Positions 1 through 45,894 of a stretch of DNA of 64,000 nucleotides are shown here, in pieces. This stretch comes from Minisyncoccota bacterium (lineage in GTDB: Bacteria > Patescibacteriota > Minisyncoccia > UBA6257 > JAVHQB01), in the NCBI GenBank assembly GCA_036170905.1, contig JAVHQB010000093.1, forward strand, positions 123-64,122, written 5' to 3'. How positions within the stretch are numbered: the stretch's first letter is position 1; each line of letters begins with the position of its first letter. The translations under genes were made by a program, and so were the position numbers. Under the pieces are notes generated by a model. The model did no database searches. It was not told where the DNA came from and saw only the letters and a program-made list of their open reading frames with translations.

Positions 1-294
1 TGCGCTAAGGCTCAGAGCAACCTGCTCATCAATTAAATGCCCGTTTGAGGTAACACAGGCATTCAAACTATTCTTTTTGGTAAAAGAAATTAATTCAAAG
101 ATGTCCTCTCTCAATAACGGCTCTCCTCCACTAAAAACAATAGTTTGCGCGCCTAAACGAGAGACATTCTTAATGACATCCTTCCATTGGTCAGTGGATA
201 ATTCCTCGATTTTCCCATAAGGGATATCACACATCTTGCATCTTAAATTACATCTATTGGTTATAGAAAATATAACTTCCTTCAGGTTGGGCAT
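1..294 (-). CDS. Radical SAM protein, N-terminal part only; the rest runs off the left edge of the window
   Basis: Reverse-complement from an ATG at 294 reads MPNLKEVIFSITNRCNLRCKMCDIPYGK...VFSGGEPLLREDIFELI. It carries a CxxxCxxC cluster motif and a GGEP SAM-binding motif. The frame is open to position 1. It overlaps the next gene by 13 nt. Confidence 0.75.
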   Translation of the reverse strand, partial: MPNLKEVIFSITNRCNLRCKMCDIPYGKIEELSTDQWKDVIKNVSRLGAQTIVFSGGEPLLREDIFELISFTKKNSLNACVTSNGHLIDEQVALSLSA

Positions 295-1430: not shown

Positions 1431-1442
1431 AATTTATATTTC

Positions 1443-2648: not shown

Positions 2649-2660
2649 TTTTTAACCTTA

Positions 2661-3908: not shown

Positions 3909-3910
3909 TA

Positions 3911-4956: not shown

Positions 4957-5042
4957 AAATTCCCCCTAACTATAGCCTAAAACAGTTAGTCTTTCTAAGA
5001 GTTATTCTTTGATATAAAGTTGTTTTCTTTAAGGTTGAATTA

Positions 5043-6125
5043 TTATAAAGCATTAATTACCAATTTATTTTCTTCTTTTAAGATTGTACAACATTCTTTG
5101 TGACAGGGCGCATTTTTTGATAAGCTTTGCCTAAGCTGTAAAAGTTCATTTTGCCATAGAGTCCTCAATGAAACATTTTTTATATTAAGCCCGGGCACGC
5201 CCAATTGATACTGCGGGCATTTCATTACTTCGCCATTTGAATCTATCGAGAGTATATAATAATTGACAAAACACCTGTTTAAATCTTCCTGATTAGATAT
5301 TTTAGATTTTTCATCGGTTCTATTTTGAGGGTTATCATTTTCTATATTCTCGAGTTCTCCCCAATTACCTTGATAACCCAACTTCTTTTCATTCTTTAGC
5401 ATGGAAAAGATGGATTTAAACTCTTTCATCTCTTCGATATTGAGTTGCAAATCTCCATAGTTTACTAACCCCATATTTAGTAATTTTAAAATATCTACTG
5501 ATTCTATATTCTTATAACTATTGGCAAATTTAACGAGTGAAGGAAGGCTTCTAAAATTGAGTTTGCTTATTACTACATTTAATATAATCTTTACCTTGCT
5601 ATCAATTTGCTGTAAAGTATCCAGGAATTCCACTATGTATTGAAAATACGGCTTTTGATTAATTGCTGGACGCATGGCGTGCTGAATAGAGGGATCAGCA
5701 GAATCAAGGCTGATTCGAATAATATCCCAACCGCAATCGGTCATAATTTTAGCTACTCCAGAATTCAAAAAACTGCCGTTAGTAGTCATCGTGCCGCAAA
5801 GCCCCAGGCGTTTAATCTCCTGTATAATAGCTATAATATCTTTTCTGCAGAAAGGCTCTCCCAAGTGACCGCCTAAATTTATATCTTTAACTTTAAATTC
5901 GCTAGCTTCTCTAAATAAACTGAACAAATCTTCGGTTGAAAGGTTACCGGACAAATCCGGAGAAACGATCTTCCCCCCAAGACAGTATAAACACCTGAGA
6001 TTACAGGTTTTTGTCAACATCAATGCAATAGTTTCAGGGCCAATCTCAGGATTCACTAAGCCAATTTTTACACGTTTGATTGTTTGCTTATCCATATTGT
6101 TTATAAACTTATCTTTTATTCTCAA
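5043..6125 (-). CDS. Radical SAM/SPASM-like enzyme
   Basis: LTKTCNLRCLYC motif, then LGGHLGEPF. The C-terminus reads RCFVN...KCPQ...APCHKECC. Confidence 0.7.
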   Translation of the reverse strand: MRIKDKFINNMDKQTIKRVKIGLVNPEIGPETIALMLTKTCNLRCLYCLGGKIVSPDLSGNLSTEDLFSLFREASEFKVKDINLGGHLGEPFCRKDIIAIIQEIKRLGLCGTMTTNGSFLNSGVAKIMTDCGWDIIRISLDSADPSIQHAMRPAINQKPYFQYIVEFLDTLQQIDSKVKIILNVVISKLNFRSLPSLVKFANSYKNIESVDILKLLNMGLVNYGDLQLNIEEMKEFKSIFSMLKNEKKLGYQGNWGELENIENDNPQNRTDEKSKISNQEDLNRCFVNYYILSIDSNGEVMKCPQYQLGVPGLNIKNVSLRTLWQNELLQLRQSLSKNAPCHKECCTILKEENKLVINAL

Positions 6126-7299
6126 AAGATTTAAAGCGCTTTTTCATTGTTTCGAATTCGTAAAAACTGCAAAAATGGCAATCAGCACAGATTTCCGGCA
6201 ATTTAAAATTAATAAGATTCTTAACAAAGCCGGCGTATTCCCGACTGTAAATAAATTCTTTAAGGCTGTTGAGTTCAAAATAATTATTTTTGTATTGCTT
6301 ATCATACTTAAAGAAACAAAAAGGAATATTACCGTTATAGCTAATTGCCAAAGTAATCAAAGGCAGATAGCATTTTAAGGCCAGGTTGTTCTTGTTCTTC
6401 AGTTCGGGTCGCCCCGGGGAATTATCCGGCAATGAATTACGGCTATGGTTTTTCCCCTCTTTTTTGAATTCAGTTATATCGAAGACTATTTTGAATTCGT
6501 TCAGCTTCTCCTCTATCCGCGGGATATCCTGCGTAAAGCTTTCTTCTTGCTCTTTACTCAACATGAATTCATTTTGATTATCAGAACCGCATCTTAACGG
6601 TTGAAGTGAGAAAAAAGCAATTTTATATCTCCCGATCATATGGATGATATCGGAGATTTTATCATAGTTAACATTTAACAAAATAGACATTATATTAACC
6701 CTGGGAAAATCAGTGCCATAGAGTCCCTTACACTTTACAATAGCATCCAATATACTTAAACTATGCGCGTGCCTGGAAGAATCAGTATAGAGCTTCTTTG
6801 CGGTTTCTTCGGAATCAGTGTTAAGGCTTATATTTAATGAACTGATTAATTTATTCTTTACTATATAATCTACATCCCGACTATCCAGGTTATTGGCGTT
6901 GGTAATAATCCGTATGAAAATATCCGTGTCTTTTAGCCTTTCCAGGAAATAAAACATATTTTCCTTATAAAAAAACGGCTCGCCCCCTCCAAACAAATGG
7001 ATATCCCTGATTTCCAATTCCTTTATATCATTGATCAGCTTATCAATATATTTTCTATCTGCAAAAAAATCTCTTGTAGGTTCATATCTTAAAAAGTCTT
7101 TAGCGCTTTCGCTTCCCGCGCACGCGCCATCGCTGCAATATCGGCACGAGTCATTACATAACGCTGAAGGATAAACAAAGAGCCTAAACGGAACAACGGC
7201 TGAATCCTCTCTCAGATTATACAAGTGGTCTGCCAAAATATCCGTCAGGCTTCCGGGGTCATATTTAAACCTAAAGACTGGTTTAATAGCTAAAGACAT
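6109..7299 (-). CDS. Radical SAM enzyme with a C-terminal auxiliary-cluster domain
   Basis: PSALCNDSCRYC motif, then FGGGEPFF. C-terminal cysteines read PFCFF...CADCHFCSF. It overlaps the downstream gene by 17 nt. Confidence 0.7.
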   Translation of the reverse strand: MSLAIKPVFRFKYDPGSLTDILADHLYNLREDSAVVPFRLFVYPSALCNDSCRYCSDGACAGSESAKDFLRYEPTRDFFADRKYIDKLINDIKELEIRDIHLFGGGEPFFYKENMFYFLERLKDTDIFIRIITNANNLDSRDVDYIVKNKLISSLNISLNTDSEETAKKLYTDSSRHAHSLSILDAIVKCKGLYGTDFPRVNIMSILLNVNYDKISDIIHMIGRYKIAFFSLQPLRCGSDNQNEFMLSKEQEESFTQDIPRIEEKLNEFKIVFDITEFKKEGKNHSRNSLPDNSPGRPELKNKNNLALKCYLPLITLAISYNGNIPFCFFKYDKQYKNNYFELNSLKEFIYSREYAGFVKNLINFKLPEICADCHFCSFYEFETMKKRFKSFENKR

Positions 7300-7315
7300 A
7301 TTTTATACTCATATA

Positions 7316-8257
7316 TTATACAACTAGTCCCGCCAGACAGGGAGATTGACAATTTTCGACTCTTTTCATCTCATTCGCATATTCGCTACTGCTAAATACT
7401 TCTTCCAGTTTATATTTATGCAGGGGATATTCTAATTCTTTACCGCAGATCCAGATGTTTCCCCTTAAGTTGATATTAAAACTCTTCACCCCCATCTTGC
7501 ATTGGGTGTTTCTTCGCAGGGTATTAGTAAAATAATCCATGTATCGGTCTAATATTTCTAAGGGCCGAGTTAACTTAAGCGCCTGATTATTTGACAAATA
7601 CGAAAGTATCCCCTTAAGCGCATTTAACTCCCCTGCGTTAAGATTAAATTTATTTCTAAGGTAATAGATCTCATTATGAGGAATTACCGGTTGAATATCT
7701 AAAGGTACCTGAGGGTAATTCTTTTCAAGAAATTTAATAAAGTTCACGAAGTCGAAAAAATTCTCCGGCATAAGAACAGAGGTAAAATAAAAGGTCCAGC
7801 CATATTGCTTAAGAAGAGCTGCGGCTTCCATAACTTTCGAAAAAACGCCGTTACCTCTTATGCGGTCATTTTCCGCTTCCAAGCCATCCAGTGAGAGTAT
7901 AAATATGGTTTTTTCTTTACATTGGATGATATTTTCCAAGAATCCCCTGGTAAGTAAAGTAGCGTTGGTAATTATATTAACGGTTATACCCTTAGCTGCC
8001 ACTATTTTAACTAACTCGGCTAAATCTTCCGCTCTTAGCAAAGATTCGCCTCCACCGAAACCAATGCTCTGGACTTTGAATCTCGTGATATTCTCAATTA
8101 TAACCTTCCATTCATCCAGGGATAATTCGTGGCTTAAGTCGTGTGGATGAGTGGTAGTAGTGCACATAACACATTTTAAATTACATCTATCCAGCATAGC
8201 TATATAAAACTGCTGGAATTCAAATGAATCTAAATCCTTATTGTTTAATATTGTCAT
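7316..8257 (-). CDS. Radical SAM enzyme (twitch/SPASM-like)
   Basis: LDRCNLKCVMC motif, then GFGGGESLL. The C-terminus reads WICGKE...NCQSPCLAG. Confidence 0.7.
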   Translation of the reverse strand: MTILNNKDLDSFEFQQFYIAMLDRCNLKCVMCTTTTHPHDLSHELSLDEWKVIIENITRFKVQSIGFGGGESLLRAEDLAELVKIVAAKGITVNIITNATLLTRGFLENIIQCKEKTIFILSLDGLEAENDRIRGNGVFSKVMEAAALLKQYGWTFYFTSVLMPENFFDFVNFIKFLEKNYPQVPLDIQPVIPHNEIYYLRNKFNLNAGELNALKGILSYLSNNQALKLTRPLEILDRYMDYFTNTLRRNTQCKMGVKSFNINLRGNIWICGKELEYPLHKYKLEEVFSSSEYANEMKRVENCQSPCLAGLVV

Positions 8258-9503
8258 TTGCTAAACTCCCACTAATAGAGATAAGCATATTTTCTAATTT
8301 CTCTAACGTATTTGCAATATCGCTATCCGACTCTCCGGTATTTGAATTAAGGCCTTCTCTCATTAATTGCAAAAAAGAGTATTCTTCGTTACGAATAGCA
8401 ATTTTGGCATCCCGGGGCAAGTTTACTATTTCTGTCTCCAATTGTGCATGGATTAAACTAATATCGTCCGATTGAGAGCGTTCTGAACAAAATTGGGTGC
8501 AGCTTTTTTTACAATTCCTGATCATCTTCCTGATTTTACCGGTATCCTCTGCATACCATGCCTTTTTAAGGCTGTCTTTTTTAATATTCCCGAATGACTG
8601 GAAGCATACAAAACTCATATCTCCCTGCGGATTTACAAAAATCCTGTTGAATCCCGCGAAACATGTATTTTCAAACCCTTGCCCTCTAAAATGCTTAATA
8701 GTTTTTTCCGGCATGATATCTATATGCATAACACCTGAAAATTCTTCCCTCTTGGCAATTAATATGTCAAAAATTTGCTGCAGCCTGGGAATATCCTTTT
8801 CTTCAATCCAGAGTTCATTGTTTTCTAAAGGTGCAGATAAATCACCATTATTAACTAGGGGCTGGAAGGCTATATAACAACAATTCATTTTTCTTGCTAA
8901 ATCCGCCAAGGCAAGAAGTTCCTCCATGTTCTTCTTCATGATCACGCTTACCATTGCAATATCCAAGACCCTGTCTTCGCTGTTACGGCCATATTTTTCT
9001 TTATAGTAATTAAGATACTCGATGGCACACATCGCTTTCTCAAATATTCCCTCACCCCGGAAAAAATTATGCGTTTTGGGATTAGCCCCGTCGATAGAAA
9101 AACTTATATTCCTTAATCTTGACCTTACTATTTTTTCAGCGGTTTCTTTGTCAATAAAACCGCCGTTAGTATTAATTGTAGTGACGATCCCGGGACGGGC
9201 AGCATAATCGATTAACTCAAATATGTCTTTTCGCAAGAGCGCTTCGCCTCCGGTAAAATAAATCGTCTTTATACCCATAGATATGGCTTCATCAATAAAC
9301 CTTTTAATGTCTTTTGCGCTTGCTTCTTCCTGGAACCGCTGCTTCCATACATTACACATCTTACACTGAAGCTGACACCGGGAGGTAACCATAAGCTGTA
9401 GCATATCAGGCTCAACCATTGCTTTATTCAATAAACGGGAGAAATTAAAAAGGTAATCTCTCTTGTATTTATCGAAGATTTCTTTCATCTTATCTGCTGT
9501 CAC
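8238..9503 (-). CDS. Radical SAM/SPASM-domain enzyme
   Basis: TSRCQLQCKMC motif, then FTGGEALLRKDIF. The C-terminus reads TCFAGFNRIFVNPQGDMSFVCFQSFGNI...NCKKSCTQFC. It overlaps the downstream gene by 20 nt. Confidence 0.8.
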   Translation of the reverse strand: MTADKMKEIFDKYKRDYLFNFSRLLNKAMVEPDMLQLMVTSRCQLQCKMCNVWKQRFQEEASAKDIKRFIDEAISMGIKTIYFTGGEALLRKDIFELIDYAARPGIVTTINTNGGFIDKETAEKIVRSRLRNISFSIDGANPKTHNFFRGEGIFEKAMCAIEYLNYYKEKYGRNSEDRVLDIAMVSVIMKKNMEELLALADLARKMNCCYIAFQPLVNNGDLSAPLENNELWIEEKDIPRLQQIFDILIAKREEFSGVMHIDIMPEKTIKHFRGQGFENTCFAGFNRIFVNPQGDMSFVCFQSFGNIKKDSLKKAWYAEDTGKIRKMIRNCKKSCTQFCSERSQSDDISLIHAQLETEIVNLPRDAKIAIRNEEYSFLQLMREGLNSNTGESDSDIANTLEKLENMLISISGSLANDNIKQ

Positions 9504-9559
9504 TATGAACCCCCTATTTCTTAAAATAGCAATTGCCTTGCCGGATATAACCGGATTTA

Positions 9560-10924
9560 TTAAGAAATACCCCCCTTATAGACGCCTAAGGCCCTCGCAA
9601 GCCCAAATAGCATCCCCTTCCTTACCTCCCTGACCCATGGGCTATTTCTTCCTTTAATATACCACTCCGATTTATTATTATAGCGAATATTCAAAGATTC
9701 CTGCTCTCTCCACAGCCGCGATTTATGGGGGATGTAACAGTTGCTGACGCTTACAAATTCATCAATATATTTCCTGTTCTTGAATAAAAATACCATAGTC
9801 TCTATTATATCACTCCATCTTTCCGTAGGATAACCTACCATCCATAACGTATTTACCTTTATCCCGGAATCGTGAGTCCTCCGTAAGGCTTGAGAGATAT
9901 GCTTTTTTAGCGGCTTACCCATATGCGCCAGGACCCTGGCTGCTCCGCTTTCGATGCCGTATGTAAAATAAATTCCCCCTGCTTTTTTTACTTTATATAA
10001 AAATTCTTGCGACATTTCTACCCGCGCACGAGCCATCCCACCCCATTCAAAATTATTTTTTCCGGAGATTATCTTATCTGCCAGCTGCCCCAATTTGCCT
10101 AAATCCCCGTTAACCATTAAGTCGTTACATTTAAAACGCCTGCGGCCAAAGAGTGCGCTGTGTTTTATCATTTCCCCAAGGATATTATCAACGCTTCGCA
10201 TCCGATACCTTCCCCACATGGGCGCGTCGGTACAGAATGCGCAACTATAATTACATCCCCGACTGAAAATAATCGGAATTTCCGCCTTATTGGTATATCG
10301 CTCAAAATCAAATAATTTTAACGCAGGAAACGGAATGCTATCTACATCTAAAGGATTGGTGTCCCATCCGTTATCCCTAAAGCCTGCGCCTGTATAAATT
10401 AACGTTCCTTCTATAACTGCATCTCTCATGGATTCGCCACGTTCAATTTTTCCTGCTATCTTACTAATAATCTTTTCGCCTTCCCCGCGAACATAAACAT
10501 CAACATTATTATTTAACTCTCCGGTTTCCATGACCTCCGCACACCATGGCCCGCCAAAAACGATACAGACGTCCTTCGCTTTTTTCTTTAATGCATCCGC
10601 CAACAAATTAGCTAATATCCTCGAATGACTGTTAACGCTTAAACCGATAATTCTCGGATTACGTTCCAGAACGGCCTCTGTCCATTTTTCCAACAAATCG
10701 GGTACATTAAAATTCATACTTATTTTTTCTAAAGATGTCCAGTAATCGGAATTTTCCCAATCCCACAAAAATTGCTTATCTTTACTTTCTACGTATAATT
10801 GAGAATTGAAACAAAAAACAGAAACATCATATCCGTTATTTATTAACTGGCCGGCTATATAAGCTATACCCAAAGGCGGCATATCAACACCATAAAGAGG
10901 AGGAAAGACTAAGGCTATATTCAT
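9560..10924 (-). CDS. B12-binding-domain (class B) radical SAM enzyme, probably a methyltransferase or other C-H functionaliser
   Basis: The N-terminus (MNIALVFPPL...PPLGIAYIAG...IIGLS) has the Rossmann-like B12-binding layout. FSRGCNYSCAFC is the CxxxCxxC motif. Confidence 0.7.
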   Translation of the reverse strand: MNIALVFPPLYGVDMPPLGIAYIAGQLINNGYDVSVFCFNSQLYVESKDKQFLWDWENSDYWTSLEKISMNFNVPDLLEKWTEAVLERNPRIIGLSVNSHSRILANLLADALKKKAKDVCIVFGGPWCAEVMETGELNNNVDVYVRGEGEKIISKIAGKIERGESMRDAVIEGTLIYTGAGFRDNGWDTNPLDVDSIPFPALKLFDFERYTNKAEIPIIFSRGCNYSCAFCTDAPMWGRYRMRSVDNILGEMIKHSALFGRRRFKCNDLMVNGDLGKLGQLADKIISGKNNFEWGGMARARVEMSQEFLYKVKKAGGIYFTYGIESGAARVLAHMGKPLKKHISQALRRTHDSGIKVNTLWMVGYPTERWSDIIETMVFLFKNRKYIDEFVSVSNCYIPHKSRLWREQESLNIRYNNKSEWYIKGRNSPWVREVRKGMLFGLARALGVYKGGIS

Positions 10925-10932
10925 ATTTATTT

Positions 10933-11982
10933 TTAAAAATTATTTTTTATGATATTTTTTAAACTAGCGGATTCATCTCGGGCATGGCAATCCTGAAGAC
11001 AGTAATTACGGCATTTTTTTATGCCTATTCTTCTTTTTTTAGCCTTTTCAGAATACCAGATTTTTTTGACTGAAGATTCTTTCCTGATGTTGCCGATTTC
11101 TTCACCACACATCTGAATTACCCCGCCGGGAATTACTGCAAATCTGCGATAACCGGCAAAACAAACCCATTCTCCTTCGCAGATATTCCTCCTAAAATAT
11201 TTTTTGATTAAACGGAAGCTAGGGTAATTCAAACCATAACCTTGCTGCTGGAGAATGTTGATTTTATCTATCATCTGATCGAGCTTATTCAGGCGTTCTC
11301 CGGTAATCCATAAATTATCCTCACCTCCAGATGAATCTTGTTTGTACAGTTTGACGTTATCAAAAACTACGGAAGTTATATATAAGGCATTGATAGATAA
11401 ACTCCTGGCTAAAGAAAAATATTCCTCCAACTCATCAAGGTTATAGTTGGATAGGGTTAAAATCATTACCTTGATTAATTTCTTCGCATTCGGGCAACTG
11501 TTTAAATGCTTTATTCCCTGCATTATTTTATCAAAAGCCCCAGGCTGAGCCCTAATTTTATCATGTGTTGCCGCTTTTGATCCATCAACAGATATCGTAA
11601 TTATATCCAACCCCGACTGGATCAATTCTTTAGCTAAATCTTCCGTTATTAAAGTGCCGTTTGTTGTTAGTATAACCTTCATATCAGAAGCTTTAGCAAA
11701 TTTTATTACATCAAAGATTAATTCACTGATCAATGGTTCGCCGCCGCATAAATTAATCTCTTTTACTCCCCACTCTTTACATTGGCTGATCACACCCTTA
11801 ACCTCTTCTAAAGTCAGATCATCTTCCTTCTTGGCGTCTTTCCAGGCATTGCACATTTTACACCTAAGATTACATCTGCTGGTGAGTGAAATCTGCAGGG
11901 TATCCGGGGGAACTAGAGGATAATTAATTTTCCTCGATAGCCAAAAGCCTATATCCTTTTTTAATTTTACTGAGATATTCAT
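10933..11982 (-). CDS. Radical SAM/SPASM-domain enzyme
   Basis: TSRCNLRCKMC motif, then CGGEPLISELIF. The C-terminus reads VCFAGYRRFAVIPGGVIQMCGEEIGNI...CRNYCLQDC. Confidence 0.8.
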   Translation of the reverse strand: MNISVKLKKDIGFWLSRKINYPLVPPDTLQISLTSRCNLRCKMCNAWKDAKKEDDLTLEEVKGVISQCKEWGVKEINLCGGEPLISELIFDVIKFAKASDMKVILTTNGTLITEDLAKELIQSGLDIITISVDGSKAATHDKIRAQPGAFDKIMQGIKHLNSCPNAKKLIKVMILTLSNYNLDELEEYFSLARSLSINALYITSVVFDNVKLYKQDSSGGEDNLWITGERLNKLDQMIDKINILQQQGYGLNYPSFRLIKKYFRRNICEGEWVCFAGYRRFAVIPGGVIQMCGEEIGNIRKESSVKKIWYSEKAKKRRIGIKKCRNYCLQDCHARDESASLKNIIKNNF

Positions 11983-12027: not shown

Positions 12028-13917
12028 CTAATCACAAAAGCAGGGTAAAAGACAAGGGTGTTTGCATCCCCTCACCCTGTCCCTGGCCTGCTCACTATCT
12101 TTAGATGCATATATTTCTTTTAAACTATTCTTACGAATATTACCATAACTTTCAAAACACGTAGTTACCTCTCCATTATTAGCGATAAGCATGGTTTTAG
12201 TCGCATAGAGACATTTTACGTCATTTTGGGATAAAGAGCCCCGAAAATATTTTTTTATAAGACTAAGGTTGCTTTCTGAATTACGCACAAGGGCAGGGTT
12301 ATTTCTTTTAAACTCCATAAGGTTATCAATTGTTTTGTCTAAAACAGCGAGCCTGTCCGGAGTAATCCAATATTTAGCGCCTTTTTTCCTCTCATTCATG
12401 GCCAGATTATTCGCAAGCAAAGGCTGGAATTGAATAGAATTTATATTTAACGATTTTAGAAAAATAGCCAGATCCAAAAGCTCTTCTAAATTTTCATTAA
12501 GAATTACTGATATAGAATTAAAGTTTATGCCTGGATATTCTTTTTTAAATTCGGAAAGCATCTTTAAGGCATTAGAAGTTTTATCAAAACATCCCTTGAC
12601 CCCCCTGATTTCATCATGAATTCCCGGGGTTAACGCATCAAGAGAAATGCTTAAAGAAAGGTATCCGCCTGCTAAATACGGAAGTAATCTTTTAATAAAA
12701 TTACCGTTCAATATAACCCCGTTAGTCAATACCCCGACATGATATTCCTTTTCTCGTACAAAATCCAGTATCTCAAAAATATCTTTTCGTATGAGAGGCT
12801 CGCCTCCGGATAAAGCAAAGTCCTTAACCTGCCAATCAAGCGCTTCATTTATAATCCTCCCTACTTCCTTTAAGGTATATTCTTTAACCGGCTTATCTTT
12901 TCTGATCTCGCAAATATTACACTGGAGATTACATCTATGGGATATATCTAAGATAATTAATTCCGGCTTAAGGAAATTTTTATCAAGTATTTTTTTTGTC
13001 CTGCCATACTCGAACGTATTGCCTATTAAGTAATTAATTTTATGTAATACAAAATAAATATAAACTTGGAATTTTTCATAAAAGCTCAACCGATTATGAC
13101 ATCGGATCAAGCGTTTGCCTAAAAGATAAGCAAAGCGCGGTATTTTAATAATATTTATAATTAATCCGGAAATAAAAACAACACTGTTTTTGGTCTTTAT
13201 TTCTTTTAACAAAGGATGATCCTGATGCATATATTGAACTAAATAATTTCCCCTGCCGTACATATATGCCTGCTTTAGAAAAGAAATCAGATCCGTATGA
13301 CAATCATGGAATACTTTTATGTCTTTCTTATAACTGAACCTGTTACCTTTCTTAAAAAGCCGCCAGAAAAAATCCAGATCTTCACCCGCAGGCAAAGGGA
13401 ATAATTCGTCAAACTCGCTGACAAGAGAGGCCCGCTTAAAAGATACATTACAGGTAGGGAAAAATATGGTTTCAGGTTTCCCGTTTATTTCTGTTTCTAT
13501 CGCCCCGTCGCTTAAGAATTGGCTAACCTGTGCCTTAATATTATGGCTGTCAACCTCAGTAAAACCTCCGATTGCTGCAATATGCTCCTCTTGGCTATGC
13601 GCCCGAACCATATTTTTGACCCAATCTTTATCTAGAACGCAATCACTATCCGTAAATCCAACTATCCCTGCCCGGGCATGTTTAATACCTAAGTTTCTGG
13701 CAGCAGCAGGGCCCCTATGGCTCTGGATAAAATACTTTAAATTTGGATTTATCTTAGAAAGCGCGCAAAGCATATCCTTGGTCCCATCAACCGAACCATC
13801 ATCTATAACGATTATCTCAAAAGCGTCTCCGGGATAACTCTGCACAAATAAAGAGTCCAGACAAAATTTAAGTTTAACCTTTCGATTATAAGTGGGAATT
13901 ATTACAGATATGTCCAT
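12028..13917 (-). CDS. Fusion protein: N-terminal GT2 (GT-A) glycosyltransferase domain joined to a C-terminal radical SAM/SPASM domain
   Basis: N-terminus MDISVIIPTYNR...IIVIDDGSVDGT...FTDSDC is GT2-like, with a DxD-type motif. The C-terminal half carries DISHRCNLQCNIC, LSGGEPLIRKDIF and SPASM cysteines (KCLYATK...TCFESYGNI...GCKHPCLLPCFCD). Confidence 0.75.
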   Translation of the reverse strand: MDISVIIPTYNRKVKLKFCLDSLFVQSYPGDAFEIIVIDDGSVDGTKDMLCALSKINPNLKYFIQSHRGPAAARNLGIKHARAGIVGFTDSDCVLDKDWVKNMVRAHSQEEHIAAIGGFTEVDSHNIKAQVSQFLSDGAIETEINGKPETIFFPTCNVSFKRASLVSEFDELFPLPAGEDLDFFWRLFKKGNRFSYKKDIKVFHDCHTDLISFLKQAYMYGRGNYLVQYMHQDHPLLKEIKTKNSVVFISGLIINIIKIPRFAYLLGKRLIRCHNRLSFYEKFQVYIYFVLHKINYLIGNTFEYGRTKKILDKNFLKPELIILDISHRCNLQCNICEIRKDKPVKEYTLKEVGRIINEALDWQVKDFALSGGEPLIRKDIFEILDFVREKEYHVGVLTNGVILNGNFIKRLLPYLAGGYLSLSISLDALTPGIHDEIRGVKGCFDKTSNALKMLSEFKKEYPGINFNSISVILNENLEELLDLAIFLKSLNINSIQFQPLLANNLAMNERKKGAKYWITPDRLAVLDKTIDNLMEFKRNNPALVRNSESNLSLIKKYFRGSLSQNDVKCLYATKTMLIANNGEVTTCFESYGNIRKNSLKEIYASKDSEQARDRVRGCKHPCLLPCFCD

Positions 13918-16632
13918 TTACTTACCGTGTATGTTTAGGATACCGGAAAAATATGGATACTTACCCGGGGAAAAGTTTGTTTTTAAAGAAGATGAATACT
14001 GTAAAACTCTACCACGATGATACCGGTCAGAATTTATTATTTTAAGACACCATTCTGGATTTAATTTTTGGAGAAATAAAGAAACTTCCGGTAGGTTATG
14101 CATAAGGTTCTCTTTCAGGCTGATAAGCTTGTCGTTTTGTTTGCCACACCATAGACAATCCCAATCATCATCAATATCATCCCTAAATTCCGGGAAATAA
14201 CCTTCATCCTTACCCACTAGCCATTGGGAGAACTTCTCAGAAAACATGATATTCGCCTGAAGACGATCTAGGTCAACCTCCTTCTCTACTTCTAAATTAA
14301 CCCTCCATTCAAACAATCCCGTATTCCCAACTACAATTTCCCACTCCTGGAATAGGGGCAAATCCAACCATTTACCGACAGCTTTAATTTTCCGGCTATC
14401 TTTGTAAACGATTTTCCAATGAGCAGATGAAAAAGAATCATACCAGCGGCCGTTGGAGCGCATTGAAGTATATAACGCAATATTCTTGGTAATCTCCTTT
14501 GCGTTTTTATAAAACTTCCCACTTCCTCTATTAAATACAAATCTGATAGCTTTATCTTCAATGATATTATCAGAATATTCGATGTTCATTAATTTATTCT
14601 TATCTAAAGAAAACTTGGCCTTAAAAACCTCATACTTACCGGGAGAGAATACAACCTTTGTTTCCGGCTCTACCCTTTCTAAGTGCAGGAGCCTTGCCTT
14701 ACCATATGAATTAGAATTAAAAACTTTTACAAAATTACCTAATTTCTCAGAAAAGAATAATGATAATGTCGGCAATTTCCCACTAGGATCATGTAATCCT
14801 ACCCGTCCTGTGGAAATACACCTTTTTAACAAGTCTACATCTACATCATTAAATGTGTCACTGAATTTCTCAGAGATAAATTCGCTAAAGAATAACTTAA
14901 AATCTTCAGAAAAAAAACATCTCAGGCGCTGCCGCTCGATAGCTATATTTTGGTTAACTTCCATATCGACATCCCAGGTAAAAGAATGGTCTTCGGATAT
15001 ATTAATCCGCCATATTTGAGAAATTCCAAGATCATTCCAGCTACCACGGGCAATCAATTTATTTTCTGCCACTTTTTCTAAGGACCAGGAAGCTGAATTT
15101 GAAGCAAACCAACTTTGCTTTATAAGAAATTCAGAATACATATGGCCAGCCTTAGTTAAAGCAATGTTATCAAATAATACAGTCAGCTTGCCATTATCAA
15201 AGACTAATTTCAACTTTCCGCTTGATATAATAAATTCCTTTTGCACCTTAGAGATATAATCATCGATATCATGGACATCAACAATTATTTTACTGGAAAA
15301 ACAGATCCGCCGGCTCGATTGGTTAATCTGCCCTCCGGAAAAGGGGATTATTTTATATTGCAGTATGCGGCCAGGATTAATATAATCAGAATTGAAGATG
15401 CCTGCATAGCCATGGTATCTTAAGCGTGCTTGCTCAAAAAGTAATGCCGGGAGCTTACCGGAAGAAGGATTCTGCGAATATACGCCAATACAAGCAGTTG
15501 AATTATTTTTAAGTGATACAGATTTCCAATACTTATCTTCCTCCTTTATGGCAGAAAACTCTCCTTGTTCTAAATCAGCAACCCACTTTTTATAACCATC
15601 AACCAGCGCAATATTAACACACACCTCAGGCAACTGTGTATCTTTTTCTAATTCAATTTCTATATCCCAGTTAATCTCATAATTGTCAGAAACCCCTATC
15701 CTCCAAATCTGAGCCATTGCAAGATGGTAAAACTTGCCAGTTGCTACAAGTTTACCATTGGACTCCTCAACATCCCATTCTGCCTGGGTAGAACTATACC
15801 ATGCATCAGCTACTCGAAATACCGTATAAACCCCGGATGAAAGCGTAATTAATTTACCTTCCCAATTCAATAGTAACTTACCATTATTAAATACCAGATT
15901 GAACTGCTTTCTTTCAATAATAGCTATCCCTTTTGGACTACCGACTGTCTGTGAATAAAAAGATAATGCCTTGGTCGTCTCTTCATCTTTAATCAGCATT
16001 CCCTGCTTTAAAAATATTGTCCTTGCGCAGAGTTTTTGCAACATAGTCATATCATGAGTAACAATAATAACGGTCTTGCCTTTTTGTTTTATCTCGAATA
16101 TTTCCTTAATGCATTTTCTCTGGAAATACTCATCTCCCACAGCCAGCGTATCATCTACAAGAAAAATATCGGAGTCCATATGCACTGCTATGGCAAATGC
16201 CAAACGCACAAACATGCCTTGAGAATAGCATTTTACCGGAGCATCGATAAACTTGCCGATTTCAGCAAAATCAATAATCTGCTGAAACTTTTCTTTAGCC
16301 TGATCTGCACGCAAACCAAAGAGTTCAAACTGCAGAGAAATGTTCTCCCGGCCGGTAAGCTCTGTCTGAAAGCCTGCACCCAACTCCAAAAGCCCGGAGA
16401 CGCTGCCTGAAACTGCTATTTCACCGCGATCAGGCTTTAACATGCCCGCAATTAATTTTAAAAGGGTAGACTTACCTGACCCGTTTTCACCGATAATTCC
16501 CAACGACTCTCCTTTTTCCATAGAGAAATTGATTCCTCGTAAAGCCCAGAAATTATCCCAGGAGGCCTTACCGTTAATCATAAACTTAATCCGGTACATC
16601 TCCCAGGCATCTTTAAATTCAATTATAGGCAT
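13918..16632 (-). CDS. wzt: Wzt/TagH-type ABC transporter ATPase with a ~650-aa C-terminal extension built from three repeated modules (putative glycan-binding domains)
   Basis: Walker A is GENGSGKST. The signature is YSQGMFVRLAFA. Walker B is IFLVDDTLAVGDE. The C-terminal region contains three related ~90-aa segments (e.g. ...KLIARGSWNDLGISQIWRINISEDHSFTWDVDMEV). Confidence 0.8.
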   Translation of the reverse strand: MPIIEFKDAWEMYRIKFMINGKASWDNFWALRGINFSMEKGESLGIIGENGSGKSTLLKLIAGMLKPDRGEIAVSGSVSGLLELGAGFQTELTGRENISLQFELFGLRADQAKEKFQQIIDFAEIGKFIDAPVKCYSQGMFVRLAFAIAVHMDSDIFLVDDTLAVGDEYFQRKCIKEIFEIKQKGKTVIIVTHDMTMLQKLCARTIFLKQGMLIKDEETTKALSFYSQTVGSPKGIAIIERKQFNLVFNNGKLLLNWEGKLITLSSGVYTVFRVADAWYSSTQAEWDVEESNGKLVATGKFYHLAMAQIWRIGVSDNYEINWDIEIELEKDTQLPEVCVNIALVDGYKKWVADLEQGEFSAIKEEDKYWKSVSLKNNSTACIGVYSQNPSSGKLPALLFEQARLRYHGYAGIFNSDYINPGRILQYKIIPFSGGQINQSSRRICFSSKIIVDVHDIDDYISKVQKEFIISSGKLKLVFDNGKLTVLFDNIALTKAGHMYSEFLIKQSWFASNSASWSLEKVAENKLIARGSWNDLGISQIWRINISEDHSFTWDVDMEVNQNIAIERQRLRCFFSEDFKLFFSEFISEKFSDTFNDVDVDLLKRCISTGRVGLHDPSGKLPTLSLFFSEKLGNFVKVFNSNSYGKARLLHLERVEPETKVVFSPGKYEVFKAKFSLDKNKLMNIEYSDNIIEDKAIRFVFNRGSGKFYKNAKEITKNIALYTSMRSNGRWYDSFSSAHWKIVYKDSRKIKAVGKWLDLPLFQEWEIVVGNTGLFEWRVNLEVEKEVDLDRLQANIMFSEKFSQWLVGKDEGYFPEFRDDIDDDWDCLWCGKQNDKLISLKENLMHNLPEVSLFLQKLNPEWCLKIINSDRYHRGRVLQYSSSLKTNFSPGKYPYFSGILNIHGK

Positions 16633-16633
16633 A

Positions 16634-17425
16634 TTAAATACGCTTTAATGCGCTCGCTTCAAGCCGGATTGACACCAATAACCCAATAAACAAACTAGAG
16701 AAAGTCCAGCCGATAACTCCCAAAAATGTTGCCAGATCGGGCATTTTGGCCCCAAAGATTATATCCCGATAGCAAAGAATGAACGTCGACATAGGATTAA
16801 AATTAAAAACCCATCTGAATTTCACAGGGACCATTTCAATAGAATAGAACACAGGTGTAACCCAAAACCAAAACATAAACAGAATTCCCATCAGGTGTTC
16901 TAGGTCGCGAAAAAGAATATTGACTACGCTAAGTAACAAAGCAATTCCGCAGGTGAAAAAATAAGTCAATAAAAATAGCACTAGCAACCAAGGGGCCAGG
17001 AGAAGAATCTTAGGATTGTGGAAAACAAAGATTGGATAAACGATACACCAGCTCATAAGAAAATTCATAAAATAAGATAGCACCGAACTTAAAGGCAGTA
17101 TTTCTTTTGGTAAACTAAATTGATGCAGAACGCTTTTTTGAGCTAATAAAGAAGGGGTAGCTTCGGATAAGGCTCCACAAAAAAACATCCACGGCAGGAT
17201 ACCTGTAAGAACAAACAGAGAAAAATCCTTTACTTCAGTTTTAAAAACAGCGGTAAATACAAAAGTTATTACCAGCATCATTAAAAGAGGATTTATTATC
17301 ACCCAAAAAAAGCCTAAAATAGAACCGGCATATTTAGCCTTAAGTTGTTTCCCTGATATGCTCCATAAAGAACGCCGATAGGAATATATTTTCCGAATTT
17401 TTTCTATAATCAAGCTTAGGGACAT
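16634..17425 (-). CDS. wzm: ABC-2 type polysaccharide/teichoic-acid exporter permease (Wzm/TagG-like)
   Basis: 263 aa with six predicted transmembrane helices and an ABC-2 layout (SILGFFWVIINPLL...). It sits directly upstream of the Wzt ATPase with a 1-nt gap. Confidence 0.75.
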   Translation of the reverse strand: MSLSLIIEKIRKIYSYRRSLWSISGKQLKAKYAGSILGFFWVIINPLLMMLVITFVFTAVFKTEVKDFSLFVLTGILPWMFFCGALSEATPSLLAQKSVLHQFSLPKEILPLSSVLSYFMNFLMSWCIVYPIFVFHNPKILLLAPWLLVLFLLTYFFTCGIALLLSVVNILFRDLEHLMGILFMFWFWVTPVFYSIEMVPVKFRWVFNFNPMSTFILCYRDIIFGAKMPDLATFLGVIGWTFSSLFIGLLVSIRLEASALKRI

Positions 17426-18717
17426 TTTATTTTCTCGGCTACCCTTTGGCCATCAAGTATAGCATCTTCCATAGACATATACTGCCAGTTTCCGTAACGG
17501 CCGCAGGCAATTATATTATTACGCAGTAAAAATTCTTTTATTGTTTTAGTTGCCTGCGAATAATGCTGATCATAAATAGGATAACCGTATTTTATATCAT
17601 TGGTGTCTGAAACTAACACTTTGTTTTTTTTATTCAAGATCCCGATTCTGTTAAGATCATTTAAAATCCGCTTAACAATCTTTCCTCTGGAAATTGGCTT
17701 ACTTTTTGAATATGCAACCTCCGCATATAAAGAACTCCTACCCTTAGGAGCAATAGTATTGGAAAAATTATGGAAGAATCCAGCCCTAAAAAATATAGTT
17801 TCTTGATGCGGAAAATACACCCAATGTTTACCGTCTCGGTAGCTTCCCTCTACGCCAAGATTCAAATTAAAAATTGAATTCCAGCGCAGTTTTTTGAAAC
17901 TGCTAAGAATTTTATCAGGTAACGGCTTGATTATTCTTATCAATTCAGGTAAAGGTATTGTTGAAATTAAGATATCGAATCTTTTCTTACCCGCGCCTAT
18001 AATAGTTATCTCCTTTTTTTCAAGATCAATTTCACTTATGCAACAATTCTTGTAAACATCGCCAATCTGTTTTTCAAATGCCTGAGGAAGTTGTCCTATT
18101 CCTCCTTTTCTGGGATACCAAAAGATAGCATTATAACCAAAACCATCCCTGCTCTTGCCAAAGAACCCGCTAGCTATATCTACTAGGCTGAGCTGGGGAA
18201 TAAATTTATCAGTCCAGGCGCAAGTCATTTGGCTCAAAGGAACTGTCCAAAATTTCTTATTATAAGGAATCATAAAATGCCTGGCTATACCTTTGCCAAA
18301 GGTAGTATTTATCCATTTTAGAAAATTTACCTGGCTTTTACTGGCCCAAGAACTGCTAGCCTGAATAAATTCCAATAAACATTCCCTGGCTATTGGCTTA
18401 GGTAAGGCATAGAGATTAGCCTGAAAGGGATAGCGGCTAAAAATACCGAAATTACTGATCCAGGCGCTTCTTTCATGACGTACCAAATTCCCCTTTAATA
18501 GTTTTCTCACCAGCCTCAGCGTATAACTGTTGCGAAAATGCAAAAGGTGGCCGTCATAATCAAAAATAAAACCATTGATTTGCTTAGAGCGACACAGACC
18601 GCCTACTGTATTTTCTTTTTCAAATACAGTAGCCCCTATCCCTCTTTTCTTAAGATGCCAGGCAGTACTTAAACCTGCAAGGCCTGCCCCTAAAATAACA
18701 ATCTTCTTTTTAGTCAT
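17416..18717 (-). CDS. FAD/NAD(P)-binding flavoprotein of the UDP-galactopyranose mutase / amine-oxidase superfamily
   Basis: N-terminal dinucleotide fold IVILGAGLAGLSTAWHL...FEKENTVGGL. The C-terminus GRYGNWQYMSMEDAILDGQRVAEKI resembles the UGM C-terminal GR.G.Y.Y.MD motif. Confidence 0.5.
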   Translation of the reverse strand: MTKKKIVILGAGLAGLSTAWHLKKRGIGATVFEKENTVGGLCRSKQINGFIFDYDGHLLHFRNSYTLRLVRKLLKGNLVRHERSAWISNFGIFSRYPFQANLYALPKPIARECLLEFIQASSSWASKSQVNFLKWINTTFGKGIARHFMIPYNKKFWTVPLSQMTCAWTDKFIPQLSLVDIASGFFGKSRDGFGYNAIFWYPRKGGIGQLPQAFEKQIGDVYKNCCISEIDLEKKEITIIGAGKKRFDILISTIPLPELIRIIKPLPDKILSSFKKLRWNSIFNLNLGVEGSYRDGKHWVYFPHQETIFFRAGFFHNFSNTIAPKGRSSLYAEVAYSKSKPISRGKIVKRILNDLNRIGILNKKNKVLVSDTNDIKYGYPIYDQHYSQATKTIKEFLLRNNIIACGRYGNWQYMSMEDAILDGQRVAEKIKCP

Positions 18718-19693
18718 TTGTTTCTATTTTTACCAACCTCCAGAATATACTTATACTAAATAAGAAAACAGTTGTAATAATACCCGCTGCGAATAGATTA
18801 TTTACCCTGGTCAGGACAACACCACAGCTAGCAAAAATAGAGCATAATAAATACATAATCAAAATTGTTTTGGCTGGCGAAAAACCCAAGGTACCGATTT
18901 TTAATGCAAGATGGTCTCTGCTTTTCTTGAAAGGCGGCCTTCTTTTAATTACCCTGAAGATAACTAGCAATATGGTATCAATAATCGGCAAACCCAGGAT
19001 CATTACCGGACTAAGCAGGGCAAAAGCATTATTAAGAGACGCGTAATGCGTAATTAGGGCGATGGAAGAAATGAGCAAACCCAAGAAATGGCTGCCGGAG
19101 TTACCCAGATAAGCCCTAGCCGGAGGAAGGTTAAAAATTAGAAATCCAGCGCTGCCTGCGCACAAAATAAGACTAAGAATCTGTACATTTAAATCTGCGC
19201 TCAAAAAACCTATCAGCAGGAATGCGCTACTTATAATCAAAGCCGTCCCTGCAGCTAAACCATCCATAATATCCAGCAGATTAAAGGCATTGGTCATACC
19301 TAAAATCCAAAAAAAAGTAATTACAGCATTACCCCAAAAACCAAGATACATAATATCTGTCCTTATTCCAAATAAAATTAATAAAACCGCGCAAAATGAT
19401 TGCGCCAGGAATTTCTGCGCTACCGACAATTCTCTTAAATCGTCAATTACGCCGAAAAACAAAACGAGCAGACAAACACCTGTTACTGCCAATACCTTAA
19501 CTAGAGCAAGATCGAATGTAAAAACACCTAAACCCGAAGAAAAAATAAAGGCCAGCCCTATGCCTAATCCCCCTACCAAAGGAATATTCTTGGTTTGAAG
19601 CATTTTGTATCTTAAAGAAATTTTTGTTAGTAAGAATGTAAAAAACGCGCTAGAGATCAGGGCGCTAGTAAAAATAATCAAATATTTAAGCAT
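18710..19693 (-). CDS. Polyprenyl-phosphate N-acetylhexosamine-1-phosphate transferase (MraY/WecA/WbpL family); the initiating glycosyl-phosphate transferase
   Basis: About 10 transmembrane helices. GVIDDL is a DD motif. NAFNLLDIMDGLAAG is the NxxNxxDGxDGL signature. Confidence 0.8.
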   Translation of the reverse strand: MLKYLIIFTSALISSAFFTFLLTKISLRYKMLQTKNIPLVGGLGIGLAFIFSSGLGVFTFDLALVKVLAVTGVCLLVLFFGVIDDLRELSVAQKFLAQSFCAVLLILFGIRTDIMYLGFWGNAVITFFWILGMTNAFNLLDIMDGLAAGTALIISSAFLLIGFLSADLNVQILSLILCAGSAGFLIFNLPPARAYLGNSGSHFLGLLISSIALITHYASLNNAFALLSPVMILGLPIIDTILLVIFRVIKRRPPFKKSRDHLALKIGTLGFSPAKTILIMYLLCSIFASCGVVLTRVNNLFAAGIITTVFLFSISIFWRLVKIETND

Positions 19694-20846
19694 TTTGGCC
19701 CCCTTGCAATAAATTAAAATATATTTCTTCGGTATGCTTAAGCATGCTACTTAATAAAAACTCTTCCGCATCTATTTTTTCCCTGGATAACTTTGAGAAT
19801 TCATATCTCTCTGGAGCATTGCTTAATAATTCCCCTACCCGATTCTGCATAGATTGTATATCACGCGTCTTAACCAAACAACCTGTTTTCCCGTTTACAA
19901 CAACCTCCCCGATGCCGCCGGTATCAGTAGCCACCAACGGAACTCCTGCAGCCATTGCTTCCAAGACTACTATCGGTAATCCTTCCCACAATGAAGTCAG
20001 CACAAAAATATCCAGGCAAGATAAAATCAAAGGTATATCATTATGCCAACCGGTTAAAATAACCTGCCCTTTTAAATTAAGTTTCTTTATCAGGGTACAA
20101 ACCTTCTGGCGTAACAAACCATCGCCAACCAGGATAAATTTAGCATCAGGAAAGTCCTTTTTAATTGCACCGGCTAATTTTATAAAATCCAAAGGAGATT
20201 TCTGGGGCTTAAAACAAGCGACCATACCCACCACTAAATCAAGATCGCTTAATCCCAGAGATTTCCTGGCTATAGAGCGTTTTTCCCTGCTCTTAAACTC
20301 ATTACAATTTATACTATATCTAATCAAGACATACTGACTTTTTTTACCAACCGAATTATTTAACCCCTTATCTTTATCGTACCTGGAAACTACGATTATT
20401 TTGCTTGTAAAAGTCGCGCAGACCTTTTCCAAAAACAGATAAAAATAATAAACAATCCTAGGTTGATAATCATGAAAACTCCAGCCGTGAACAGTATGGA
20501 TAATAACTGGTATTTTCGCAAATTTTGCAGCAAAACGTCCTAAAATCCCTGCCTTAGAACTATGCGTATGAACAATCTGTATTTTATTTTTTCTAATGAA
20601 ACTATACACTTCAACTAAAGCCAAGACATCTTTAAAAGGGTTTATCGAACGCTCTAAAAATCTTGACCTATGCAAAGTTAGCTTATCTATAGAGACTGCT
20701 TCATTGATTAATAAACCGTCTTTGGCAGTAAATAAAAAAATATTGTATTTTTCTTTATCCGAGCTGCTAATCAAGCTTAGTAATTGTTTCTGAGCGCCCC
20801 CCAATTCCAGCTTAGTAATAAGATAAAGAAGGTTAATTTTAGGCAT
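19686..20846 (-). CDS. GT4-family (GT-B) glycosyltransferase
   Basis: C-terminus SLWEGLPIVVLEAMAAGVPLVATDTGGIGEVV is the EX7E-type GT4 motif. Confidence 0.8.
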   Translation of the reverse strand: MPKINLLYLITKLELGGAQKQLLSLISSSDKEKYNIFLFTAKDGLLINEAVSIDKLTLHRSRFLERSINPFKDVLALVEVYSFIRKNKIQIVHTHSSKAGILGRFAAKFAKIPVIIHTVHGWSFHDYQPRIVYYFYLFLEKVCATFTSKIIVVSRYDKDKGLNNSVGKKSQYVLIRYSINCNEFKSREKRSIARKSLGLSDLDLVVGMVACFKPQKSPLDFIKLAGAIKKDFPDAKFILVGDGLLRQKVCTLIKKLNLKGQVILTGWHNDIPLILSCLDIFVLTSLWEGLPIVVLEAMAAGVPLVATDTGGIGEVVVNGKTGCLVKTRDIQSMQNRVGELLSNAPERYEFSKLSREKIDAEEFLLSSMLKHTEEIYFNLLQGGQNA

Positions 20847-24961: not shown

Positions 24962-24986
24962 ACTTAATTTTTAAAAAGAGGATACA

Positions 24987-26174: not shown

Positions 26175-26295
26175 ATATCCTCTTTGGCGGTTGGAGACTT
26201 TGGTTAAGTTATTTGACTTTTTTCAACTAAATTATGCTCTAAATTCCTTATTAATACAAGAAGATTTAAGAACAATTATGTCTTGTAACGTAATT

Positions 26296-29148: not shown

Positions 29149-29160
29149 CGGATCAATTCC

Positions 29161-45892: not shown

Positions 45893-45894
45893 TT

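Follow-up and report, generated by a model that had tools for sequence, protein, structure and literature searches.

The window analysed here is a stretch of 64,000 nucleotides (nt) of contig JAVHQB010000093.1 (assembly GCA_036170905.1, deposited as a Minisyncoccota bacterium), and the gene under study lies on its minus strand, where a GT2 glycosyltransferase (GT) and a radical S-adenosylmethionine (SAM) enzyme are joined in a single polypeptide, as the first-pass annotation of this DNA had claimed. The open reading frame (ORF) occupies exactly 12028..13917 (-), runs uninterrupted from ATG to TAG without a single internal stop and encodes 629 amino acids (aa). In order along the protein, and all on the minus strand, it comprises a GT-A catalytic core (residues 1-209, 13291..13917), a helical tail (residues 210-313, 12979..13290) that forms four long helices in the AlphaFold2 secondary structure and is predicted to be a membrane-interface region, an inter-domain linker (residues about 311-317, 12967..12987) of variable sequence and length and of low model confidence, a radical SAM partial barrel (residues 318-500, 12418..12966) and, finally, a bridging region with a Cys-rich, SPASM/twitch-like C-terminal domain (residues 501-629, 12031..12417). 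Pfam recognised three domains above their gathering cutoffs: Glycos_transf_2 at residues 4-164 (E 5.9e-33, 114.6 bits, cutoff 23.3), Radical_SAM at residues 325-484 (E 5.1e-21, 76 bits, cutoff 29.5) and SPASM at residues 569-619 (E 3e-06, 27.9 bits, cutoff 21.5). The first of these scores, far above its gathering value, bears out the earlier assignment of the N-terminal domain to GT-A/GT2, and the motifs on which that annotation relied are all present (IPTYNR at 7-12, DDGSVDGT at 39-46, DSDC at 90-93, CNLQCNIC at 329-336 and GGEPLIRKDIF at 371-381), as is the Cys-rich terminus (C618-x3-C622-x3-C626-x-C628). In contrast to the Pfam results, no NCBIfam model reached its curated cutoff, the best sub-cutoff matches being EpsD and MftF for the N-terminal half and NirJ, AhbD, a 'tungsten-enzyme maturase' and StsB for the C-terminal half; the fusion therefore falls outside every curated family. 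The AlphaFold2 model has a mean pLDDT of 89.3, with values below 50 only at residues 311-315 and in the loop 505-512, and shows a GT-A fold in the GT half and a partial TIM-barrel fold in the radical SAM half. Its pTM is 0.59, so that the relative orientation of the two domains is not fixed by the model.

The same arrangement was found in many other genomes. A search of 5.8 billion proteins gave 514 matches, and the best 120 clusters (90% identity) were inspected: 118 of them are full-length, collinear GT2 and radical SAM fusions of 582-976 aa with 51-83% identity to the protein studied here, the two exceptions being fragments from short contigs. These fused proteins were drawn from NCBI, JGI, ENA and Logan assemblies. 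When one genome per species was scanned, 57 loci contained a collinear match of at least 42% identity (a few of these loci are ended by a contig edge), which answers the call of the first-pass annotation for a search of other genomes. Nearly all 57 bear the title Candidatus Omnitrophota. Auto-labels of 'uncultured Planctomycetales' occur in some, and a few carry the label of nano-sized archaea. Full-length orthologues occur in three contigs labelled Nano- or Woesearchaeota (L039, L046 and L052), and the archaeal-labelled contigs that carry the fusion are probably mis-binned Omnitrophota DNA. The fusion is thus shown to be conserved phylum-wide in the Omnitrophota.

An alignment of 44 orthologues was used to call invariant residues, and these include residues on both sides of the junction, which lies at about nt 12960-12990 of the window (H292, K293, Y296 and G299 before it; P318, I322, D324 and H327 after it). 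This bears on the possibility that a missed stop or a frameshift had merged two neighbouring genes in the present assembly, a concern already voiced with the initial claim. Such a reading draws on one related lineage (L087), in which the slot behind the transporter gene wzt holds the two halves as separate ORFs, a 311-aa GT2 (52% identity to residues 1-309) and a 322-aa radical SAM protein (46% to residues 318-629), that overlap by 8 nt exactly at the linker, beside an A6 run of contig JAGOLA010000030.1. Removal of one A from this run re-fuses the frame; the split may be true or an error, and as a single A in a homopolymer separates the split from the fused frame, the split is the likelier error. 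Over 12,969 nt, locus L088 matches L087 with 100% identity and does not represent a second, independent split form, and L085 was discarded as a split form because the gene upstream of its stand-alone radical SAM gene encodes another radical SAM protein and not a GT2. Against a merging artefact stand the fused frame in more than 100 independent protein clusters and in the 57 species-representative genomes, together with the invariant residues on either side of the junction. Conservation of the fused frame across so many assemblies, with invariant flanks, excludes a missed stop or frameshift, and we leave the artefact practically no probability.

Both halves of the protein are conserved to a comparable degree. 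On average, two sequences of the alignment are 55% identical in the GT-A core and equally so in the helical tail, 61% identical in the radical SAM barrel and 57% in the C-terminal domain, but 13% in the linker, and the segment between reference positions 305 and 320 varies from 12 to 28 residues across the orthologues. This is the conservation pattern of two folded and, by prediction, functional domains on a flexible tether, and the identities show two intact domains on which purifying selection acts equally.

The N-terminal half belongs to the GT2 enzymes of GT-A fold and is expected to transfer a glycosyl group from a nucleotide sugar. D40 and D90-x-D92, the nucleotide-binding Asp and the DxD metal-binding motif, are invariant in the 44 orthologues, and so is G178-E179-D180, a putative base region that aligns with the GGED of the chondroitin polymerase K4CP (xED base region). 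Two Cys of the same region are invariant as well, C93 in DxDC (window about 13639-13641) and C156 in FFPTCN (about 13450-13452), and C19 is nearly so; conserved Cys in the GT-A catalytic region are unusual for GT2 enzymes. The NCBIfam model EpsD aligns with residues 3-309 over its positions 1-315 of 325 (141.5 bits, cutoff 370) and spans the helical tail, so that helices 210-313 belong to the EpsD-type GT2 and are not a spacer specific to the fusion. This tail has a net charge of +12 and includes a hydrophobic helix (245-257) as well as a cationic amphipathic helix (259-276, hydrophobic moment 0.67); the former, with 13 residues, is borderline and too short for a transmembrane pair. From these properties we infer a monotopic membrane-interface element. 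A polyprenyl-phosphate sugar synthase was considered and rejected: the matches to DPMS, ArnC and GtrB are weak and N-terminal (E 1.7e-4 to 0.013), and the fusion has neither a close full-domain similarity to these enzymes nor their C-terminal pair of transmembrane helices.

The C-terminal half is a radical SAM enzyme, for which reductive SAM cleavage is predicted from the CX3CX2C motif (C329-x3-C333-x2-C336) and from S370-G371-G372-E373, all invariant in the orthologues. The first-pass annotation had described it as a complete radical SAM/SPASM enzyme; the radical SAM core and a Cys-rich auxiliary domain stand, whereas the complete SPASM domain does not. SPASM domains are defined by seven or eight Cys (CX9-15GX4C ... 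CX2CX5CX3C ... C) that bind two auxiliary [4Fe-4S] clusters, and twitch domains by three or four conserved Cys and one auxiliary cluster (PMC9477430). In the 44 orthologues of the fusion, only five C-terminal Cys are invariant (C569, C587, C618, C622 and C626, while C628 varies); they form an invariant hairpin, C569-x12-G582-x4-C587, and an invariant tail, C618-x3-C622-x3-C626, which places CX3CX3C where CX2CX5CX3C is expected. D629 is likewise invariant. The five Cys and D629 would suit a single, fully ligated cluster with one Cys left over, and the Pfam SPASM domain is recorded in fewer than half of the fusion orthologues. The same C...C...CX3CX3C tail is found in five stand-alone paralogues of the window and in a split gene (3911-4956), which share 27-32% identity with the radical SAM half of the fusion over the aligned region.

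GT2 and radical SAM (rSAM) domains also occur in other combinations. An exhaustive HMMER search of 1.84 billion cluster representatives retrieved 571 proteins at E<=1e-30. The collinear fusions among them reach down to 28% identity; stand-alone GT2 representatives number about 20 (roughly 280-350 aa, with 35-51% identity), many of them spanning the helical tail, and stand-alone radical SAM representatives have 44-49% identity. There are also many proteins, 1,000-4,400 aa long, in which 3-9 stretches were matched. The architectures sampled were B12-rSAM-GT2-rSAM (1161 aa), GT2-rSAM-rSAM, rSAM-rSAM-GT2, rSAM-rSAM and proteins with five or six GT2 domains (1515 and 1862 aa). A second GT2-rSAM protein (880 aa) shares a cluster with a GT2-rSAM-rSAM protein (963 aa), and the fusions catalogued in related Omnitrophota loci include proteins P0121, P0147, P0150, P0127 and P0128 and the gene at 20045-22687 of L001. 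In L087, an FkbM methyltransferase is fused to rSAM and SPASM domains (6973-8817, 614 aa). A Heimdallarchaeota-labelled contig (L070, 5155-7270) carries adjacent, unfused genes for a GT2 (322 aa) and a radical SAM protein (381 aa), collinear with the fusion at 25% identity. A stand-alone GT2 of 51% identity lies in a cluster of WecA, a UDP-galactopyranose mutase (UGM) homologue, GT2 and ABC-2, with no radical SAM gene nearby. One distant fusion is encoded in a locus that also has a Wzx flippase, GTs and a DegT aminotransferase, and another in a locus with MurA/MurB homologues, GTs and a B12-dependent radical SAM enzyme. This recurrent and independent joining of radical SAM domains to sugar-active enzymes, always in polysaccharide loci, is the strongest argument for a role in glycan biosynthesis.

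The neighbourhood of the gene is that of an exported polysaccharide. In the direction of transcription, the cluster reads GT4, WecA-like enzyme, UGM homologue, Wzm, Wzt and fusion, followed by a variable string of radical SAM genes. The first gene encodes a GT4-family (Pfam Glycos_transf_1) glycosyltransferase (19686..20846, -) and the second a polyprenyl-phosphate sugar-1-phosphate transferase of the WecA/MraY family, the chain initiator (18710..19693, -). The third gene (17416..18717, -) encodes an FAD enzyme homologous, over almost its full length, to UGM of the eukaryote type: residues 4-414 match Trypanosoma cruzi UGM (4dsg) at E 2.7e-48. Comparison with the Aspergillus enzyme (E about 3e-37), with Escherichia coli Glf (1i8t, E 4e-4) and with TIGR00031 (55 bits) places it much nearer to the eukaryote-type than to the bacterial-type UGM. 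Then come the Wzm ABC-2 permease (16634..17425, -) and a Wzt-type ABC ATPase of 904 aa (13918..16632, -; Aquifex Wzt, E 4.9e-62), whose TAA stop abuts the ATG of the fusion with zero spacer, and the fusion is probably translationally coupled to this cluster. An initiating transferase, cytoplasmic GTs, Wzm and Wzt are thus found together, and the locus fits ABC-transporter-dependent glycan assembly.

This arrangement recurs in related loci. Among 31 of them with at least 9 kb of flanking sequence, Wzm is found upstream of the fusion in 29, Wzt (within 10 kb) in 28, the UGM homologue in 23, the WecA-like gene in 22 and the GT4 gene in 20; the gene immediately upstream is Wzt in 23 of 45 loci, with a gap of 3-76 nt in 22 of these and of 247 nt in the remaining one. 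On the other side of the fusion there are always radical SAM genes, 1-9 SPASM-like and 0-3 B12-dependent in related loci. The C-terminal 650 aa of Wzt (residues about 235-904) consist of three repeats of about 220 aa with 25-28% identity, which were detected by segment-wise comparison (pairwise E 2.6e-20 to 9.9e-25), whereas a plain BLAST self-comparison showed none. No Pfam domain, including the known carbohydrate-binding domain of Wzt, matched this extension at E<=0.01, and the triple repeat may represent a new glycan-recognition module. The length of about 905 aa is kept in the Wzt proteins of related loci. The cluster is accompanied by a gene for a 699-aa GH44-like glycoside hydrolase (21122-23221, -), which separates Wzt from the fusion in 8 of 45 related loci; as a set, the GH44-like, GT2 and GT4 genes weakly match the NCBIfam exopolysaccharide trio EpsB, EpsD and EpsE. 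An O-antigen-ligase-family gene flanks the cluster in L002.

Several characterised systems resemble this locus in part. Similar in organisation are the pathways of E. coli O9a (wzm-wzt-wbdD), Klebsiella D-galactan I and the mycobacterial galactan, which resemble it in WecA-type initiation, in the UGM homologue, in the use of GT2 and GT4 enzymes and in Wzm/Wzt export, and also in the gene of a multifunctional enzyme right after wzt and the long C-terminal extension of Wzt. In E. coli O9a, the gene directly after wzt is wbdD, which encodes the chain terminator. The present locus differs from these pathways in that the Wzt extension consists of three novel repeats instead of the known carbohydrate-binding domain, the UGM is eukaryote-like and the variable part is made of radical SAM genes instead of GT and NDP-sugar genes. 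The GT half has relatives in EpsD (NF041875) of exopolysaccharide clusters and, among solved GT2 structures, in K4CP, TarS, TarP and WrtF, all of which lack a fused radical SAM domain. Its score, well under 370 bits, means that it is no equivalog of EpsD, and it has its own invariant Cys at DxDC and FFPTCN. The SPASM/twitch enzymes anSME, SuiB, SkfB, PqqE and BtrN differ from the radical SAM half, which has the five-Cys set with CX3CX3C and no PqqD/RRE domain; they are known from the maturation of proteins or of peptides made by the ribosome and modified after translation (RiPPs), whereas the fusion occurs in the context of polysaccharide assembly.

Among sugar-active radical SAM enzymes, we compared the fusion with BlsE, the cytosylglucuronate decarboxylase of blasticidin S biosynthesis (PDB 7vob; PMC3715490). 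The two share about 18% identity, the Cys tail is CxCxxC in BlsE and CX3CX3C in the fusion, and BlsE, which belongs to a nucleoside-antibiotic pathway, is soluble, stands alone and is not fused to a GT. The BlsE model TIGR04466 is outside the best 25 NCBIfam matches of the fusion, and a neighbouring paralogue scores 76 bits against a cutoff of 400. Mycofactocin biosynthesis (the GT2 MftF and the SPASM enzyme MftC) and hopanoid side-chain synthesis (the GT2 HpnI and HpnJ) likewise combine a GT2 and a radical SAM enzyme in one pathway, and the fusion matches the MftF model with its GT half (E 7.1e-39) and the MftC model with its radical SAM half (E 2.3e-18), both far under the cutoffs. However, in these pathways the two activities reside in separate proteins, whose target is a peptide-derived cofactor or a triterpenoid, and the other genes concerned are absent here; membership in either group was rejected, every score being far under its cutoff. 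Public databases label the fusion only as 'glycosyltransferase' or with a dual COG label, and full-text literature, with most subscription journals outside its coverage, contained nothing on the fusion, on radical SAM enzymes of polysaccharide loci or on those of Omnitrophota. With no curated family reached and no literature found, we agree with the initial remark that this is not a characterised enzyme class.

The first-pass annotation also took the fusion as strong evidence that the radical SAM enzymes of the locus act on sugars and not on peptides. Its glycan context is well supported, but the strength of the argument was overstated: a fusion places two activities in the same pathway and does not thereby identify the substrate of the radical SAM half. 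Peptides are glycosylated by GT2 enzymes of the SunS type, and among solved radical SAM structures the nearest are both those of a sugar enzyme (BlsE) and of peptide maturases (SkfB and SuiB), with nearly equal scores. What favours a carbohydrate over a peptide is the genomic context, the fusion gene being always located in polysaccharide loci among those examined. The search for signs of a peptide substrate, namely RRE/PqqD domains and precursor-size ORFs or gaps, came up empty: no PqqD/RRE domain (PF05402) was detected in the fusion at E<=0.01 or in the paralogues at E<=0.001, and the packed cluster leaves no slot for a precursor-peptide gene, its sole gaps of more than 60 nt measuring 86, 275 and 121 nt. 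In addition, residues 210-313 of the fusion form four long helices and not a winged helix, and the radical SAM core of the paralogues begins near residue 30, too early for a recognition domain to precede it.

Within this context, we give about even credence to the proposal that the radical SAM domain tailors a lipid-linked glycan. The same domain might instead act before transfer, on a nucleotide sugar (UDP-hexose, UDP-hexuronate or the furanose of the UGM homologue), and hand an unusual donor to the tethered GT2, in what would be the channelling of an unstable or rare donor. We regard this as unlikely, though worth keeping in mind: 18 radical SAM genes for about 4 GT-A/GT-B and 5 GT-C enzymes in the window fit poorly with one radical SAM enzyme per donor, the occurrence of rSAM domains fused with one another, with an FkbM methyltransferase and, in several orders, with GT2 looks like the serial tailoring of a scaffold, and the radical SAM half has no nucleotide-binding signature besides its SAM motifs. 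It is quite improbable that a lipid of the pathway (a membrane lipid, a glycolipid anchor or the polyprenyl carrier) is modified, in the way of the SPASM-type enzymes GDGT-MAS/Tes or of the hopanoid enzymes HpnH/HpnJ, before being glycosylated by the GT2 domain, as the GT half resembles GT2 enzymes with glycan acceptors (invariant GED) and is weakly similar to DPMS, ArnC and GtrB, the models of HpnH, HpnJ and GDGT-MAS score far under their cutoffs, and the conserved core is devoid of lipid-synthesis genes. Hardly any more credible, and if anything slightly less so, is a glycopeptide or glycoprotein maturase, in which the GT2 domain would glycosylate a polypeptide encoded elsewhere (a RiPP or a surface protein) and the SPASM-like domain would cross-link or epimerise it. 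Besides the missing recognition domain and small-ORF slot, the genes conserved alongside the fusion encode WecA, the UGM homologue and Wzm/Wzt and neither peptidases nor exporters of peptides, and the distant fusions sit with Wzx, DegT and MurA/B homologues.

We therefore favour the tailoring of a lipid-linked glycan, and the fusion is most likely a membrane-associated bifunctional enzyme that adds a sugar to such a glycan and then modifies it by radical chemistry. Under this proposal, the WecA-like enzyme would start the glycan on a polyprenyl-diphosphate carrier, and extension would proceed on the cytoplasmic side of the membrane. The GT2 domain, inverting, DxD-dependent and held at the membrane by its EpsD-like cationic helices, would transfer one sugar from a nucleotide sugar, possibly a furanose supplied by the UGM homologue, to the growing chain. 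The radical SAM domain, at the end of a flexible linker of roughly 7-20 residues, would then cleave SAM reductively and abstract a hydrogen atom from a sugar carbon of the newly added residue or of its neighbour. One tailoring step might follow (epimerisation, dehydrogenation, dehydration or decarboxylation, as in BlsE, BtrN, DesII and NeoN), presumably assisted by one or more auxiliary Fe-S clusters. Encoded downstream, the B12-dependent radical SAM methylases and the stand-alone paralogues could add modifications that vary between strains, before the product is exported by Wzm/Wzt, the triple-repeat extension of Wzt being a candidate for recognition of the finished chain. Going only by gene order, in which the fusion directly follows wzt as wbdD does in O9a, the enzyme might install a chain-terminating cap.

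Both kinds of domain are already known, as are sugar-active radical SAM enzymes of antibiotic pathways; what is new is the fusion, the non-canonical five-Cys auxiliary domain and their place at the core of a phylum-wide, radical-SAM-rich cluster for surface glycans. To our knowledge, radical SAM enzymes acting on sugars come almost only from small-molecule antibiotic pathways, and we know of none shown to act in the assembly of a bacterial surface polysaccharide and of none fused to a GT. The family is large and extends across an uncultured phylum of very small anaerobes, at the core of their main exported-glycan cluster. We advance, tentatively and as a possibility we hold with less than even confidence, that the fusion founds a conserved class of radical SAM enzymes tethered to a GT and tailoring lipid-linked polysaccharides of the cell surface, and that surface-glycan diversity among Omnitrophota strains arises mainly by radical chemistry. 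The usual repertoire of NDP-sugar pathways and GTs would then not be the main source of glycan diversity in this phylum, and the glycan would be a carbohydrate counterpart to heavily radical-tailored peptides such as the polytheonamides. Should the radical SAM half modify the sugar placed by the GT2 half, the fusion would represent an enzyme architecture new to the tailoring of sugars without oxygen, and it would account for the up to a dozen radical SAM genes packed in glycan loci. Genome-mining tools that take SPASM genes for markers of peptide natural-product clusters would then misclassify such loci. As a single polypeptide, the fusion is also an expressible target, in which the activity of one partner narrows the candidate substrates of the other.

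Downstream of the fusion, the window contains nine further radical SAM genes. The nearest lies 45 nt away and encodes a stand-alone paralogue of 349 aa (10933..11982, -) that is 30% identical to the radical SAM half of the fusion and has the same C...C...CX3CX3C tail. It is followed by a B12-dependent radical SAM gene (9560-10924, -) and by a SPASM-like array on the same strand (8238-9503, 7316-8257, 6109-7299, 5043-6125, 3911-4956, 2661-3908 and 282-1430), and this region, 282..10924, is the variable tailoring part of the cluster. The gene at 3911-4956 (-) is split into two overlapping ORFs, with an N-terminal part that carries CX3CX2C (4549-4956) and a C-terminal part that carries the C...C...CX3CX3C tail (3911-4561); it has a frameshift near 4549-4561 and is a pseudogene or an assembly error.

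The entire 64-kb window looks like one glycan island. It contains in total 18 radical SAM genes, of which 9 are SPASM-like, 7 are B12-dependent (-; starting at 9560, 31499, 35280, 36664, 41938, 43394 and 54380) and 2 are of other kinds (55936 and 61453), as well as five PMT_2/ArnT-like GT-C enzymes and additional GT2 genes. No NDP-sugar epimerase, dehydratase or aminotransferase domain was found by Pfam in the window ORFs of at least 150 aa, all but one of which were scanned. A polysaccharide deacetylase (with DUF3473) and a carbamoyltransferase are encoded at 45044-47616 (+), by the sole annotated genes of the plus strand, and the segments 57129-57995 (-) and 59487-61304 (-) hold, between them, the genes of a second carbamoyltransferase and of a UbiA-family prenyltransferase; together they hint that the island also provides for N-deacetylation, for carbamoylation and for a polyprenyl-phosphate-sugar branch. 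U32-family ('peptidase U32') genes number four and are arranged in two pairs (23277-29901 and 38146-40405, -), the first of which is interleaved with genes for four paralogous polytopic membrane proteins with a common R-x-TFNFFFFA motif and for a 275-aa protein without Pfam match; the same U32 module is found close to the cluster in both L001 and L036. Oxygen-independent hydroxylases (UbiU/UbiV and TrhP) belong to the U32 family and, by analogy, the U32 genes of the window may be anaerobic hydroxylation modules of the glycan island. Between 29911 and 44818, several of the B12-dependent radical SAM genes are interleaved with PMT_2 GT-C transferases (29911, 32927 and 40368). Two further PMT_2/ArnT-like GT-C genes, each encoding 537 aa, lie in tandem at 48394-50007 and 50041-51654 (-) with 99.3% DNA identity, and are either a very recent duplication or an assembly repeat.

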